From a virus (lineage: Duplodnaviria; Heunggongvirae; Uroviricota; Caudoviricetes): a stretch of DNA of 46,457 nucleotides. Where the stretch lies: IMG/VR virus record IMGVR_UViG_2563366799_000009. One strand, written 5' to 3'. A program made the translations under genes and the position numbers. This document shows positions 37,725 to 40,574 of the stretch, one piece after another. The notes under the pieces are model-generated. The model was not told the DNA's origin. It worked only from the letters and a program-made list of their open reading frames with translations, and made no database searches. Every line of letters begins with the position of its first letter. Within the stretch, counting starts at the first letter, position 1.

Positions 37725-38357
37725 TTACTTCTCCATACAAGATTTGTCTGCCACGACGCCCGGAGCTGCACACTCGCGGGCGTCACCTTTTTCCGGCGCA
37801 CAAAACACACGGAAAAGCAGCGTCAAATGTTCCTGCCACTTAGCCATCACCTGATAGCTGTTCTCTTCGATCTGGGCGCGTTCCTGAGCATCAATAACGC
37901 CGTCAGCGGTAGCTTTACGAACGTATTGCGAATGCCTGCCGATCCACTCAACTGACTCCATGAGACGCTGGTTGATATCGCCGTTCTCAATATCTTCAAC
38001 ATCAGCCAATGGCACAAACACACCGTTCGAGTGACGTGCAATAGCATTCGCTATGTGGTTTGAACCACCAGCACGCTGAAGCACCATCGCCCAACCGAGC
38101 GGGAAGATCTGATCACCATCGGTACGCAGCCGGTTAAACAGCGCGTTCTCGGTCACACCCAACCACTCAGCAGCTTCGGAATACCCGCCAGGAAGCTCGG
38201 TGATCGTTTTTTTGATTGCGGCCACCAGCCAGGCTGGCTGCTTATCTACTTTCCATTCAGGTTCTATACCCACGGCTAGGTCCTCCCTTCTGTGGTTATT
38301 TCTGATCGTTAGGCGCTGTATTCTTGCCATAACGTTCTGGGTTGAATTCCAGTTCAC
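37725..38357 (-). CDS. CII-like / YdaT-like early regulatory protein
   Basis: 210 aa; position directly after the cro-like gene; weak family recollection only. Confidence 0.4.
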   Translation of the reverse strand: MNWNSTQNVMARIQRLTIRNNHRREDLAVGIEPEWKVDKQPAWLVAAIKKTITELPGGYSEAAEWLGVTENALFNRLRTDGDQIFPLGWAMVLQRAGGSNHIANAIARHSNGVFVPLADVEDIENGDINQRLMESVEWIGRHSQYVRKATADGVIDAQERAQIEENSYQVMAKWQEHLTLLFRVFCAPEKGDARECAAPGVVADKSCMEK

Positions 38358-38511
38358 CAGCAGTTCGATACGCAGCTTCAGCAGCTCGTCCTTTAGGGAT
38401 TAAGCGTCCGGGGCGATTACGCCACTGGTAAACGGCCTCACTGGTGATGCCAAAAAATTCGGCAACTTTCTCAGTGCTGCCGAAATGTTGTTCAATCTCG
38501 TCGGTTGTCAT
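38296..38511 (-). CDS. cro: Cro-like HTH regulator (YdaS/Cro family)
   Basis: 71 aa; FGITSEAVYQWRNRPGRLIP pattern; divergent from cI. Confidence 0.65.
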   Translation of the reverse strand: MTTDEIEQHFGSTEKVAEFFGITSEAVYQWRNRPGRLIPKGRAAEAAYRTAGELEFNPERYGKNTAPNDQK

Positions 38512-38610: not shown

Positions 38611-39237
38611 ATGGAAACGGTTGGTCAGCGCATTAAAGCCCTACGCAGGGTTACAAAAACCTCTCAAAAAGAACTGGGTAAGTTCTGCGGAGTGAGTGAC
38701 GTAGCAGTGGGTTATTGGGAAAAGGATGTGAATATCCCAAACGGAGAATCGCTGGTTAAGCTGGCTAAATTCTTCAATACATCAATAGATTACATTCTTT
38801 ACGGCACTGAATTTGAAGGGACCCTCATAACTAAAATGAGGCGTGTGCCCGTGATTTCTTGGGTTCAAGCTGGGCAGTTTACGGAATGTAAGGCCGCTGA
38901 TTTATTCAGTGATGTCGATAAATGGGTTGAAACCTCACTACGCATTGGGGATAGCTCGTTCGCTTTAGAGGTCAAAGGGGATTCAATGACCAATCCAAAT
39001 GGCCTCCCAACAATTCCTGAAGGGGCAACCGTTATTGTCGATCCAGATGCCGAACCCCTTCATGGCAAGATTGTTGTTGCGCGTATTGATGGCACTAACG
39101 AAGCGACTGTTAAAAAACTGGTCATTGATGGCCCACAAAAATTTTTAGTCCCACTAAATCCTCGCTACCCCAACATCCCGATCAATGGTAACTGCCTCAT
39201 TATTGGAGTAGTTAAAGGCGTTCAGTACGAACTCTAA
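38611..39237 (+). CDS. cI: CI-type repressor (HTH plus S24 LexA-like autopeptidase domain)
   Basis: 208 aa; N-terminal HTH; C-terminal GDSM and …VKKL… Ser/Lys dyad region. Confidence 0.8.
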   Translation: METVGQRIKALRRVTKTSQKELGKFCGVSDVAVGYWEKDVNIPNGESLVKLAKFFNTSIDYILYGTEFEGTLITKMRRVPVISWVQAGQFTECKAADLFSDVDKWVETSLRIGDSSFALEVKGDSMTNPNGLPTIPEGATVIVDPDAEPLHGKIVVARIDGTNEATVKKLVIDGPQKFLVPLNPRYPNIPINGNCLIIGVVKGVQYEL

Positions 39238-39261: not shown

Positions 39262-39320
39262 ATCAAGCTAAGTTTAGTTTGATGTTTTCGCTTGACCAAT
39301 AAACTAAGTTAAGTTAGATT
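39262..39320 (+). promoter_or_regulatory. OL/PL-like operator-promoter: CTAAGTTTAGTTTGA and ACTAAGTTAAGTTAG sites overlapping TTGACC-17-TAGATT
   Basis: Same CTAAG half-sites as OR; -35/-10 spacing read by eye. Confidence 0.5.
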
Positions 39321-39449
39321 TTTTTCTGTCGACACCAAACCACCGCGCCTGATGTGGTTAAAAGCAGGCCAAAGCAATATGAAGTGATCCCTGTTCTGGC
39401 TGTTCACTTTCCCCTGAGGGTGACAGCCAGCTTTTTAAGGGCACAACGT

Positions 39450-39514
39450 GAAAGCGCACTCCATCAACTATCGGTTGTGGATGACAGGTAAGTAAACAGG
39501 CGGAGTGCGCTTCC
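39450..39514 (+). promoter_or_regulatory. Structured element A: 11-12-bp stem (GAAAGCGCACTCC / GGAGTGCGCTTCC) with 39-nt loop
   Basis: Inverted repeat read directly; copy of element B. Confidence 0.4.
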
Positions 39515-39734
39515 AGTTGTGATGAATTGCAGCCCTTTGAGGCAACCAGAAGATAAGCACCTGGCGTCACAGCACTATTGAACATGGCGAAAGCCGAAAG
39601 ACTTGAAGGCGGTTTTCTCAGGTTGCGCGCTAAAGAATAGCGGGGAGAACCTGGGGCGGAGAGCAAACCCCGCGATGCAGGACTTGAAATACCTCACAGA
39701 CCAATAAGCCGTCTGGCAGCGTAACTGCCCTTTA

Positions 39735-39776
39735 CATCAGCCCCGGCGAGGTGGCGCCGACGGACCGGGGCTGATG
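39735..39776 (+). promoter_or_regulatory. Perfect 12-bp inverted repeat CATCAGCCCCGG-N18-CCGGGGCTGATG
   Basis: Read directly; no U-run on either strand. Confidence 0.4.
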
Positions 39777-39792
39777 AATCGCAACACAACAT

Positions 39793-39853
39793 GAAAGCGC
39801 ATTCCTCTTTTCACTGATGGGGATCGGTTTGTTACCTGGCGGAGTGCGCTTCC
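39793..39853 (+). promoter_or_regulatory. Structured element B: same stem as A with one C-to-T change (G-U wobble on the + transcript), 35-nt loop
   Basis: Flanking CACAAC(R)TG and AGTTGTG also conserved with element A. Confidence 0.4.
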
Positions 39854-40202
39854 AGTTGTGGTAATGCGGCTCTGCGCACGTGACGAGGCCAATAAGTTTA
39901 TTTCAACTTTGAAATGAATACGTTTCTTAAGGTGTAGCGTCGTCGGTTCTGGCCGGTCCGGCAGGTGGAGGCACCACCGCCACAACAACATCATTGCTGT
40001 GTGTAGTCTTTGCCCATCACATCGGTGGGCACCTTTTTTACACAAGAGACAAGGGCATCACCGGGCGACGGGCTCATTCCCCAATCCACCCGGGCGCTAT
40101 GGAAATGGACCTCCTACCCATAGCCGAAGCGCAGGTGCCCTTTTCTGTTGTGTATGGAGAAGTTCCACTGGCGGTGGCAGCCGCCTCACAGAGGGTTAAA
40201 CC

Positions 40203-40574
40203 ATGAGTAATGACCGCATGACCGTAGTGCCCGATTTCCTGGGCGAACTGGATGCCGGCGTGTTCATGAACAAGATCGCGGCAGCTTTAAACACTACCGC
40301 GCTTGGCGTTCTGAACAACGGTACCAAAGGCAAAGTAGTCCTCACCTTTGATATTGAGCGTATGGGTAACTCCGTCGAAGAGAAGCGCGTCAAGATCAAG
40401 CACAAGCTGAACTACGTCACCCCCACCCCGCGCGGTAAAGCCTCCGAAGAAGACACCACCGAAACACCAATGTGGGTTAACAAAGGCGGCAAGCTGACCA
40501 TACTGCAGGAAGATCAGGGGCAGCTGTTCGGGATCAACGGCGGCGTTGACGGAAAGCTTAAAGCGGCACAGTGA
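40203..40574 (+). CDS. Hypothetical early protein (possibly YfdP-like)
   Basis: 123 aa, first gene of the early-left operon; no N-like Arg-rich motif. Confidence 0.4.
   Translation: MSNDRMTVVPDFLGELDAGVFMNKIAAALNTTALGVLNNGTKGKVVLTFDIERMGNSVEEKRVKIKHKLNYVTPTPRGKASEEDTTETPMWVNKGGKLTILQEDQGQLFGINGGVDGKLKAAQ

Follow-up and report, generated by a model that had tools for sequence, protein, structure and literature searches.

What does a long hairpin do when it is repeated in the untranslated leader of an early phage transcript? The question arises in a 46,457-nt stretch of viral DNA (hereafter the window; Caudoviricetes, IMG/VR record IMGVR_UViG_2563366799_000009), in which the promoter PL (39292-39320) is separated from the first early-left gene (40203) by a leader that holds two copies of one structured element. 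The original prediction, made from the letters of the window, took these copies for cis-acting structures on the PL transcript, for example nut- or put-like antitermination elements, or for a small RNA. Here we describe the leader and its element, place the element in a family, and weigh what the family might do.

Organization of the early-left leader

The leader follows a gene encoding an S24/HTH CI-type repressor (38611-39237). Operator-like direct and inverted repeats (39262-39324; D2/I4) and a sigma70-like promoter identified by promoter scan (TTGACC-17-TAGATT, 39292-39320) lie directly after this gene, in agreement with the operator/promoter predicted at 39262..39320. The first early-left gene is yfdP-like, starts with ATG at 40203 and belongs to phrog_204. 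Folding indicates that the whole leader is densely structured, and besides the repeated element it contains two terminator-like hairpins and an RprA-like small RNA (sRNA) (Table 1). Prophages of E. coli Nissle 1917 and others have the 5'-proximal hairpin region at 92% identity; no other segment lies 5' of the element as often, and in many relatives the two are directly adjacent. The terminator-like hairpin that follows it was missed by the consensus terminator scan because its loop is longer than 8 nt; an identical sequence in a related locus (L012) gave -21.4 kcal/mol in the terminator test, and the order of terminator-like hairpin, then element, is the same in the Nissle prophage and ST64B. 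At the other end of the leader, the segment immediately before the first gene is kept in relatives.

The ~860 bp originally described as lacking a credible ORF correspond to an ORF-poor leader of ~875 nt, and its non-coding status is supported. The leader ORFs have no Pfam match and are broken by indels of 1-2 nt in a prophage whose leader is 95% identical (E. coli GCF_057815175.1), and the only recurrent start codon is destroyed in family variants, where ATG is changed to CTG or TTG, deleted, or followed directly by TAA. A conserved small protein-coding gene, which the original prediction had named as the finding that could explain the repeats away, was not found, neither start nor frame being conserved. 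Two specific coding candidates were rejected: a small peptide read from CACAAC-ATG, whose start and frame are not conserved and whose length varies from 8 to >23 codons, and 102-aa ORFs on the minus strand, which have no Pfam match and are broken by indels.

Table 1. Features of the early-left leader, in order along the window
Feature	Position	Strand	Evidence
Operators and PL-type early-left promoter	39262..39327	+	Repeats D2/I4, promoter scan, CI-type repressor upstream
5'-proximal hairpin region of the PL transcript (ACCACCGCGCCUGAUGUGGUUAAAAGCAGGC)	39340..39376	+	Fold, conservation
Terminator-like hairpin (CUGGCUGUUCAC...GUGACAGCCAG) and U5	39395..39440	+	Fold; ends 6 nt before copy 1
Element copy 1 (E1)	39442..39521	+	Repeats, covariance model (93 bits), pairing, fold
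Cargo between the copies	39522..39784	+	Indel relative to phage LLS; hairpin fold
Element copy 2 (E2)	39785..39860	+	Repeats, covariance model (90 bits), fold
RprA-like small RNA	39892..40040	+	Rfam RprA score, alignment to K-12 rprA, terminator scan
Third, divergent, larger stem (E')	40039..40154	+	Inverted repeat I2; fold -56.4 kcal/mol, z -6.0
Short hairpin GGCGG UGGCA GCCGCC (40170-40185) and Shine-Dalgarno GAGGG (40191-40195)	40155..40202	+	Read from sequence

Two copies of one RNA hairpin

Repeats, folds and a covariance model bear out the presence of two repeat copies in the leader, and across the 46-kb window the model matched only these two, with the scores given in Table 1. Their 5' arms span 39442-39462 and 39785-39805 and their 3' parts 39487-39521 and 39826-39860 (D1/D4), with stems at 39449-62/39502-15 (I5) and 39792-805/39841-54 (I7). 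Each copy forms an irregular stem of ~20 bp consisting of CACAAC...GUUGUG plus GAAAGCGCAYUCC/GGAGUGCGCUUCC. In E1, the order is P1 (CACAAC/GUUGUG), a 1-nt bulge, a 2-bp step, an A.C mismatch, P2 (AAGCGCACUCC/GGAGUGCGCUU) and an apical domain made up of a small hairpin and a G/U-rich motif. The element helix is quasi-continuous over ~23 positions (P1 of 6 bp, 1-nt bulge, 2 bp, conserved mismatch, P2 of 11 bp) and carries a variable apical top. The fold has an energy of -32.8 kcal/mol in copy 1 (z -3.9) and -32.9 kcal/mol in copy 2 (z -5.1), and 0/200 shuffles were as good; for copy 1 taken alone, the minus strand folds slightly better than the plus strand (-36.1 versus -32.8 kcal/mol).

These structures refine the element first described. 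Its unit is ~80 nt rather than ~95 bp, and the 11-12-bp stem stands, but the conserved flanks assigned to either side of it (CACAAC and GUUGUG) in fact pair, giving ~20 bp with one bulge and one A.C mismatch, and the loop of 35-39 nt contains conserved sequence and the small hairpin. The C-to-T difference reported at 39802 is present, with T there and C at 39459, and makes a G-U pair on the plus strand. Rfam 15 returned no match at the gathering threshold in the window, nothing for the repeats at E up to 10, and nothing for five related loci at E up to 1.

A widespread family at the boundaries of RNA units

The repeats are true copies of a widespread, unannotated family of RNA hairpins in temperate-phage early leaders. 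Using exact-arm patterns to collect loci, we found 228 copies in 171 phage or prophage loci, all on the sense strand of the early operon. Phage P1, ST64B and many prophages of Klebsiella, Enterobacter and Citrobacter carry related copies, and 4083 of 5426 complete E. coli genomes contain a copy of the type found in the E. coli Qin region, at up to seven places per genome; among the records listed, no annotation underlies the Qin-type copies. Folding and covariation analysis had been proposed as a check of the element, and across the family pairing is kept by compensatory changes: in an alignment fitted to the model and containing 60 distinct arm sets, 96.1% of cells are paired and 12/19 pairs show double changes (59 cells), a level reached by 0/500 shuffles, with slid controls giving at most 11 cells. 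Three subfamilies are set apart by compensatory blocks, namely GCGCACUCC/GGAGUGCGC, GCGCGUUC/GAACGCGC and AAGAGCAYUG/CAGUGCUCUU. The strand count of G-U versus A-C pairs is 53:24, a ratio biased by the way in which the loci were collected.

Copies lie at the boundaries of RNA units and share their strand with downstream tRNAs, sRNAs, terminators and early genes. Thirty-nine of the 44 distinct second copies start 0-3 nt after the U-tract of a strong terminator; tRNA-Arg(UCU) begins within the last 3 nt of helix P1 in 15 loci, and the copy in phage P1 begins at the last base of tRNA-Thr. Many first copies are at the predicted transcription start, and six distinct first copies, window copy 1 included, come after a terminator-like hairpin; a hairpin of this kind is also found between the first element and the first gene in 82/146 distinct leaders. 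The carriers vary in repressor type and downstream genes, which points to a host factor rather than phage proteins as the partner of the element.

A homologue at the RNase III site upstream of DicF

The covariance model R1, which was built from window-type copies only and gives the 93 and 90 bits of the two window copies, matches the Qin region of E. coli K-12 (locus L195, 1372-1459, plus strand; 36 bits, E 4e-9). This copy lies between ydfC and dicF, has arms near-identical to those of the window (GAAAGCGCA.../...UGCGCUUCC.GUUGUG) and adopts the same fold, which is more stable on the sense than on the antisense strand (-35.6 versus -27.8 kcal/mol). Together, compensatory pairing, uniform strand and this sense-strand fold support the original view of the repeats as cis-acting structures on the PL (sense) transcript. 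According to a recent study (bioRxiv 10.1101/2023.04.14.536235, citing Faubladier 1990), the 190-nt DicF species of K-12 has a 5' end that is made by RNase III, disappears in an rnc mutant and has no internal promoter; the study uses the numbering 813/814 for the cut. Calculated from the '190 nt' size given there and the annotated dicF 3' end, and accurate to a few nucleotides, the cut falls 190 nt before L195 1635, at 1446, within the 3' arm of the element (1439-1458); on NC_000913.3 the element spans 1649171-1649258 and the expected cut is at 1649244/1649245. About 11 stacked positions lie on each side of L195 1446, which fits an RNase III dimer, expected on a helix of ~22 bp (PMC6212723).

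The likeness extends to the surroundings. Both elements are on the sense strand of a repressor-controlled operon of early-left type, are homologous in sequence and structure, and end at a similar distance from the end of the sRNA (179 nt in the window, 176 nt in Qin), and the window order of repressor, promoter, element, ~125-nt spacer, seed and terminator is the same layout as in Qin. Qin differs in having one copy after three small ORFs, whereas the window has two close copies and a divergent third stem in an ORF-free leader, and the sRNA is DicF in Qin but RprA-like in the window. Rfam, sequence-string and literature searches gave no description of the K-12 site as a member of a conserved family.

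Proposed processing by RNase III

Since the K-12 relative is at the mapped RNase III cut that releases DicF, the window repeats most likely serve to cut the PL leader, splitting it into small RNAs, one of them an RprA look-alike, rather than acting as antiterminators. We regard the repeats as probably RNase III processing or punctuation hairpins. Host RNase III would bind the helix and cut near its centre in the 3' arm, at GUGCG|CUUCC; transferred from the Qin copy, the predicted cuts are at ~39509/10 (copy 1) and ~39848/9 (copy 2), and would divide the long untranslated leader into separate RNAs. In copy 2, cleavage would release a ~191-nt precursor of the RprA-like sRNA that starts at the cut and ends at the terminator U-tract at 40039; RNase E could shorten this precursor further, as for DicF. 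The third stem, placed after the sRNA terminator, may split read-through transcripts into sRNA and early-gene mRNA and set the 5' end of the latter.

Hairpins of the lambda N-leader and T7 R1.1 type are cut by the host enzyme, so that RNAs are separated and stabilised. Like the window element, they are irregular helices of ~20 bp with internal loops, repeated along an early polycistronic transcript, and the third stem lies just upstream of the ribosome-binding site of the first gene, as does the lambda N leader site. Unlike them, the units here are small RNAs or tRNAs and the basal helix is unusually conserved, and we saw no sequence relationship. The sequence specificity of RNase III is weak, which leaves the near-invariance of CACAAC/GUUGUG, bulge and mismatch unexplained by processing; nor does processing account for the conserved G/U-rich apical motif, and where a copy opens a transcript there is no upstream RNA to split off.

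Through the family, an RNA element that is very common yet unannotated acquires a name and a model, and a single observation from 1990, the RNase III cut upstream of DicF, is tied to conserved structures. The family also predicts cut positions in the early-left leaders of temperate phages and marks 'non-coding' leaders as arrays of host-directed small RNAs. In the window these include an sRNA that has 26 nt in common with RprA, a regulator of the host, and phage manipulation of the sRNA networks of the host at induction becomes directly testable.

Alternative functions

The antitermination reading holds that the folded element binds the transcribing RNA polymerase, which then reads through the leader terminators, replacing an N protein as the put RNAs of phage HK022 do. 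These are likewise cis-acting structured RNAs of 70-85 nt near the PL transcript start of a lambdoid phage without N, and they work without phage proteins. The stretch from PL to the leader terminators contains no N-like gene or ORF, and Pfam and PHROG scans of the early-left proteins found no N-like family, as had been predicted; moreover, terminator-like hairpins lie between the first element and the first gene in over half of the distinct leaders, many first copies are at the transcription start, as is putL (PMC9378689), and a basal helix conserved in sequence and independent of phage proteins would suit an RNA that binds polymerase. However, putL and putR each consist of two stem-loops, whereas the element is one long stem, and blastn of the leader against the HK022 immunity region showed no similarity to putL. 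HK022 has a putR, but in the window neither the PR operon nor any other region outside the leader contains a copy. Window copy 1 and the other five first copies of its kind come after a terminator-like hairpin, nearly all second copies come just after a terminator, and further copies flank tRNAs or occur in the P1 ban operon. A lambda-type nut site is poorly matched: no boxA-like sequence (YGCTCTTW) is found near PL or PR, searches for nut, boxA and ops gave no matches near the promoters, and a boxA-like UGCUCUU in the 3' arm of one subfamily was rejected because it is base-paired and not conserved across subfamilies. In Qin, dicB is annotated downstream of the DicF terminator, so by precedent no antiterminator is required; Qin is not known to have an N-type antiterminator, or any other. 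Given also that the K-12 homologue is cleaved by RNase III, the nut- or put-like function originally suggested is unlikely.

The boundary positions invite a purely structural reading, in which a stable stem without a specific RNase III role insulates modules so that they fold apart, blocks Rho loading on the long untranslated leader, limits cutting by RNase E or RNase P to the short unpaired junctions and protects new 5' ends. Only 0-6 nt of single strand separate terminator or tRNA from element, many copies are at the transcript 5' terminus, and the leader is densely structured throughout; conserved sequence, bulge, mismatch and fixed helix length would be unexplained, though, and the K-12 homologue is cut by RNase III, making such an insulator or 5'-end protector quite improbable. 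We consider it very unlikely that the element is instead a DNA-level site or linker for swapping small-RNA cassettes between phages, by homologous or attC-like recombination. Integron attC sites form imperfect hairpins (57-141 nt) that have AAC...GTT termini, are unpaired in an internal region and vary at the tip; the element resembles them in its AAC...GTT termini, internal bubble and variable tip, and likewise delimits cassettes that share one orientation behind a single promoter. The element bounds the modules of which the mosaic leaders are composed, exactly one cassette is missing from phage LLS, which has a hybrid element, and copies within one phage are usually of different subfamilies, an arrangement that would curb recombinational deletion and implies that recombination among copies is of consequence. 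Yet there is no integron integrase or other integrase partner, the cargo is made up of small RNAs and not of ORFs, only 6/7 positions of the termini agree with the attC consensus on each side, the LLS crossover is inside the element and not at the G|TT core, orientation strictly follows the direction of transcription, wobble pairs favour the sense strand, and there is evidence for a role at the RNA level, with which recombination as a side effect is compatible. Another candidate role is that of a decoy, the abundant leader RNA titrating the host sRNA GcvB through the 5' arm CACAACA(U), especially once cleavage had exposed it. The sRNA AgvB of EHEC prophages (RF02702) acts in this way; its active part is CACAACA, which is also the stated target consensus of GcvB R1 (PMC4104026). 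CACAAC(A) is retained in all three subfamilies, 3/9 CACAAC and 4/6 GTTGTG on the plus strand of the window are inside the 875-nt leader, and a further CACAACAACA precedes the sRNA seed. AgvB, however, is an sRNA of 51-60 nt at a PR' moron site with a single-stranded motif, whereas the motif in the PL leader is one strand of a helix, paired in P1 with an equally conserved GUUGUG, so that the helix and not a free seed is conserved; the Rfam AgvB model scores 14.9 bits against a gathering score of 56, on the neighbouring sRNA and not on the repeats, and a decoy function is highly unlikely. A broader reading, also improbable, makes the hairpins standard connectors of exchangeable small-RNA cassettes (element, cargo sRNA or tRNA, terminator, repeated), their conserved ends serving both swapping and processing, and the RNase III products themselves acting in trans on host partners such as GcvB. 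Such products would be an excised apical hairpin of ~55 nt with the conserved G/U-rich motif and freed CACAACA and GUUGUG arms, and a put-like effect on polymerase at many leader terminators would be an addition.

Other identities were examined and rejected. A MITE- or REP-like repeat is dismissed because the copies are all in one context and one orientation. The apical loops have no complementary 9-mer in the early-left transcript region. For tRNA-like or Y-RNA-like structures, ARAGORN found nothing in the elements and Rfam gave no YrlA match. Canonical T-loops are seen in some variants only. Nothing relevant turned up in the literature for the sequence strings, for RprA homologues in phages, for sRNAs of ST64B or for the ban leader of P1.

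The RprA-like sRNA and other parts of the leader

The original suggestion of a small RNA holds for the leader, which contains the RprA-like sRNA, and fails for the repeats themselves, which are a separate module; they look like processing signals of this sRNA and not the sRNA itself. The sRNA opens with a stem-loop at its 5' end, continues with CACAACAACA and with 26 nt that match E. coli RprA exactly (AUUGCUGUGUGUAGUCUUUGCCCAUC), and closes with an intrinsic terminator (40011-40031 and U6). Against the Rfam RprA model (RF00034) it scores 44.1 bits (E 6e-4; gathering score 70), and compared with K-12 RprA it has a 41-nt insertion upstream of the identical block. The same RprA-like seed is found within 1.2 kb of the element in 82/171 loci.

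The third stem (E') begins at the end of the sRNA terminator U-tract and makes the 5' untranslated region of the first early-left gene. Its outer stem is ACACAAG...GUUGUGU, AAGGGCA/UGCCCUU comes next, and the branched apical domain includes a T-arm-like hairpin. E' is a putative family member by its shared layout, and R1 did not detect it in the window; in locus L016 the stem that directly follows the sRNA terminator, as E' does, has a score of 28 bits against R1. SfV, SfII, ST64B, Stx2c phages and the Nissle prophage conserve the 5' half of E', and in SfV, SfII, Stx2c phages and the Nissle 1917 prophage a stem with the E' layout, likewise a putative member, lies at the corresponding place in the leader.

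The cargo between the copies, together with one element copy-length, makes up a 343-bp stretch that is absent from phage LLS, whose single element is the hybrid noted above. The perfect 12-bp inverted repeat originally reported between the copies is confirmed within this cargo (39735-46/39765-76; I9), where it folds at -28.2 kcal/mol (z -4.2) as a hairpin at 39735-39776 with no U run after it. The first ~55 nt of the cargo are common to the ban leader of phage P1.

Conserved hairpin elements in the early-left leader

The window is a lambdoid-type temperate phage most closely related to Escherichia phages LLS, Flotzy and Eeyore, and the two hairpin repeats in its PL leader belong to a large, unannotated element family recognized here for the first time. 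Leader ORFs have no Pfam hit and are broken by 1-2-nt indels in an E. coli prophage of 95% identity, and no N-type antiterminator is detected among the early-left genes, bearing out the gene-free leader and absence of an N-like gene in the original prediction. After the first early-left gene come DUF2303/yfdQ, a nucleotidase resembling yfdR, a DksA-like zinc-finger protein, an exonuclease and an integrase.

All sequence features listed in that prediction are found at the coordinates it gave, but the repeat unit is ~80 nt, not ~95 bp, and the 'flanks' it set apart from the stem are a continuation of it. CACAAC pairs with GUUGUG, so that the stem comprises an outer 6-bp helix (helix P1), a 1-nt bulge, 2 bp, an A.C mismatch and an inner 11-bp helix (P2), a helix of ~23 positions in all, beneath an apical domain of 35-39 nt. 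Predicted folding energies are -32.8 kcal/mol for copy 1 (z -3.9) and -32.9 kcal/mol for copy 2 (z -5.1). These two are the only matches in the 46-kb window to R1, a covariance model built from window-type copies. Copy 1 lies after a terminator-like hairpin (39395-39440) and copy 2 ~30 nt 5' of an RprA-like small RNA.

Features of the immunity region and early-left leader (window coordinates unless a fetched locus is named)
Feature	Coordinates	Strand	Remarks
CII/CP76-type gene	37725-38357	minus	
P22-Cro-type gene	38296-38511	minus	
CI-type repressor gene	38611-39237	plus	HTH and S24 peptidase domains; faces Cro-type and CII/CP76-type genes
Operator-like repeats			3' of repressor gene
PL equivalent	39292-39320	plus	sigma70-like promoter TTGACC-17-TAGATT
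Element copy 1	39442-39521	plus	
Element copy 2	39785-39860	plus	
RprA-like small RNA	39892-40040	plus	
Third stem	40039-40154	plus	inverted repeat, same design as element, larger, divergent; fold -56.4 kcal/mol, z -6.0
First early-left gene	40203-40574		yfdP-like, phrog_204
~150-nt module	L002 ~2140-2300, L004 ~2845-2995, L005 ~3100-3255, L006 ~3093-3245		outside window

The element is more than a chance repeat, and the finding is real. Each exact-arm pattern matched at least 120 IMG/VR contigs, and nhmmer recovered 228 copies from 171 fetched loci, 57 of which hold two copies, on one strand in every case. Carriers have hosts in the Enterobacteriaceae (Kosakonia, Enterobacter, Kluyvera, Raoultella, Citrobacter, Klebsiella and Escherichia). 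Pairing, whose conservation the original prediction had named as a check, holds in 96.1% of cells over 60 distinct arm sets. With the alignment fitted to the model, both-sided changes occur in 12/19 pairs (59 cells); none of 500 shuffles matched this level, and shifted registers gave at most 11 double-change cells. Compensatory blocks in P2 distinguish three subfamilies, across which helix P1, the bulge and the mismatched position are near-constant; copies sharing one phage are usually of different subfamilies. A search of Rfam 15 returned no family for the element. A peptide gene was rejected as an explanation, the ATG being changed to CTG or TTG, deleted or followed directly by TAA.

Every copy shares its strand with the adjoining tRNA, small RNA, terminators and early genes. 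G-U pairs outnumber A-C pairs on this sense strand (53 versus 24), a count given little weight because loci were gathered by fixing one arm, which biases it. For the E. coli K-12 copy, whose discovery is free of that bias, the folding energy is -35.6 kcal/mol in the sense and -27.8 kcal/mol in the antisense orientation; for the window copies alone, folding energy does not settle the strand.

A 343-bp stretch (cargo 39522-39784 plus one element copy-length) is present in the window and three E. coli prophages and absent from phage LLS, whose sole element is a hybrid with the 5' arm of copy 1 and a copy 2-like apical part and 3' flank.

Elements mark RNA-unit boundaries

The element marks RNA-unit boundaries, and its strict placement beside terminators and tRNAs is new here. 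Many first copies start within a few nucleotides of a predicted transcription start and others directly 3' of a small 5' hairpin also conserved in E. coli Nissle 1917. Distinct second copies begin 0-3 nt past the U-tract of a strong terminator hairpin in 39/44 cases. The start of tRNA-Arg(UCU) falls within the last 3 nt of helix P1 in 15 loci, and in the C1-controlled ban operon of phage P1 the last base of tRNA-Thr is also the first of one copy, with at least one further copy present.

In locus L035 (7987-8063) and 14 others, this early-left leader tRNA-Arg(UCU) is fused to the element 3' end with a 3-nt overlap and is followed by a strong terminator and a second element. The phage P1 ban leader (AF234173) holds two to four copies on the ban sense strand (994-1078, 1433-1523, 1659-1756 and 1935-2017 of the fetched locus, L172); on the opposite strand they overlap the annotated genes plp and upl, and whether these are real genes may merit rechecking. 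The tip of copy 1433-1523 contains a canonical T-arm (AGGGUUCGAAUCCCU). In Klebsiella phage Kp4866-6 (L005, ~3255-3385) the apical domain has grown to ~100 nt with two hairpins bearing canonical T-loops (UUCGAUU); ARAGORN called no tRNA there. Directly 3' of PL in the window, 39340-39440 (plus strand; L173 1795-1905) comprises a conserved 5' hairpin followed by a terminator-like one with a U5 run, and the pair is predicted to yield a ~110-nt RNA from PL. Prophages in Nissle 1917 and some 40 further E. coli genomes match the 5' part of this region at 92% identity.

Against the Rfam RprA model, the small RNA 3' of copy 2 scores 44.1 bits (E 6e-4), short of the gathering score of 70. It shares with E. 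coli K-12 RprA an identical 26-nt block (AUUGCUGUGUGUAGUCUUUGCCCAUC) that includes the conserved 3' region. Its 5' stem-loop is also similar to that of RprA, and it has a 41-nt insertion and a terminator of its own. The small-RNA option of the original prediction thus survives in part, as the leader does hold one, but it is distinct from the repeats. The seed GCUGUGUGUAGUC occurs within 1.2 kb downstream in 82/171 loci, usually 0-50 or ~125-150 nt from the element; related phages keep it and differ in their terminators. RprA-like cargo next to the element is new here, and a literature search found no paper describing a phage RprA look-alike. The seed is also present in mEp390, BUCT708 and Kp4866-6 and, with one change, in ST64B.

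The third stem begins where the U-tract of the small-RNA terminator ends. R1 did not detect it in the window, and it is therefore assigned to the family by its layout alone; a stem in L016 that scores 28 bits to R1 is likened to it by leader position. It forms a large branched structure in the 5' UTR of the first early-left gene, seen also in L173 (~1905-2030), L193 (1505-1595) and L005 (~3590-3690), with a tRNA T-arm-like inner hairpin (GGGCUCAUWMCCC-AAUC). Conservation of the 5' half extends to SfV, SfII, SfIV, ST64B, Stx2c-converting phages, mEp460 and a Nissle 1917 prophage.

A homologue at the DicF processing site

R1 also matches E. coli K-12 prophage Qin (NC_000913.3 1649171-1649258; L195 1372-1459, plus strand, 36 bits, E 4e-9). 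The match falls between ydfC and dicF, within the dicBF operon, which DicA represses. The arms are near-identical to those of the window (CAUAAC-GC-GAAAGCGCAUGG ... CCGUGCGCUUCC-G-GUUGUGG), with the same fold. Qin-type copies occur in 4083/5426 complete E. coli genomes, with no annotated feature under them among the records listed. A preprint (bioRxiv 10.1101/2023.04.14.536235, citing Faubladier et al. 1990) shows that DicF comes from the dicBp transcript by processing, that RNase III makes the 5' end of a 190-nt form, which is lost in an rnc mutant, and that the 53-nt form is a later RNase E product; the RNase III dependence of the K-12 cut is taken from this literature. A 5' end 190 nt before the annotated dicF 3' end would fall at L195 1446, within the element 3' arm (1439-1458), between GUGCG and CUUCC. 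About 11 stacked positions flank this site on either side; ~11 each side are expected for an RNase III dimer on a ~22-bp helix (PMC6212723). The distance from element end to small-RNA end is 179 nt in the window and 176 nt in Qin. Just 3' of the dicF terminator, GUGGUGAAUGCGGCUGAGCGCACGCGG (L195 1636-1690) matches the conserved 3' flank of the element in the window (39858-39885), ST64B and phage P1, and looks like the remnant of a second element.

Proposed function and alternatives

The elements are most likely RNase III processing signals of a DicF-type small-RNA cassette, a known kind. Transferred by homology, the predicted RNase III cuts in the window copies lie near 39509/10 and 39848/9; cleavage of copy 2 would leave a ~191-nt precursor ending at the 40039 U-tract, mirroring the 190-nt DicF form, and RNase E may trim this precursor further. 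The third stem occupies the same position as the RNase III hairpin in the lambda N leader, and could let read-through transcripts give both the small RNA and an early-gene mRNA whose 5' end it would set. RNase III by itself does not explain why CACAAC/GUUGUG is near-invariant, why the bulge, the mismatch and the G/U-rich apical motif are conserved, or why some copies lie at the extreme transcript 5' end.

Antitermination by put- or nut-like elements, as originally proposed, fails every test run: there is no similarity to HK022 putL, boxA was not found near PL or PR, R1 finds no copy in the PR operon of the window, copies sit 3' of terminators, and the sole studied homologue is a cleavage site. 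The window leader does have terminators without an N gene upstream. Qin dicB also lies beyond the DicF terminator and Qin is not known to have an antiterminator, so partial read-through of leader terminators may suffice. Two roles added to processing have low probability. A sponge role would rest on CACAACA, the GcvB R1 target consensus that AgvB, a prophage small RNA, uses (PMC4104026), but in the element this motif forms one strand of a helix. A recombination linker would fit elements that bound mosaic modules, and the hybrid element of LLS.

Other leader modules

A further conserved leader module (UAUGGCACAUG ... GGAAUGUGCAAG ... GGUGUGAC plus a small GAAGAG-loop hairpin) has an internal hairpin that varies in sequence and keeps its pairing; it looks like another unannotated structured RNA, over which mEp390 gene 036 is annotated. 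Phage vB_SmeS_BUCT708 (L004, 2780-3470) carries many repeated small boxB-like hairpins with GC stems and purine-rich loops (for example, GCCGG GAAAGA CCGGC and CCCGG GAAGAGU CCGGG), one directly 5' of its element; its recorded host is Stenotrophomonas, and its leader is enterobacterial in type.
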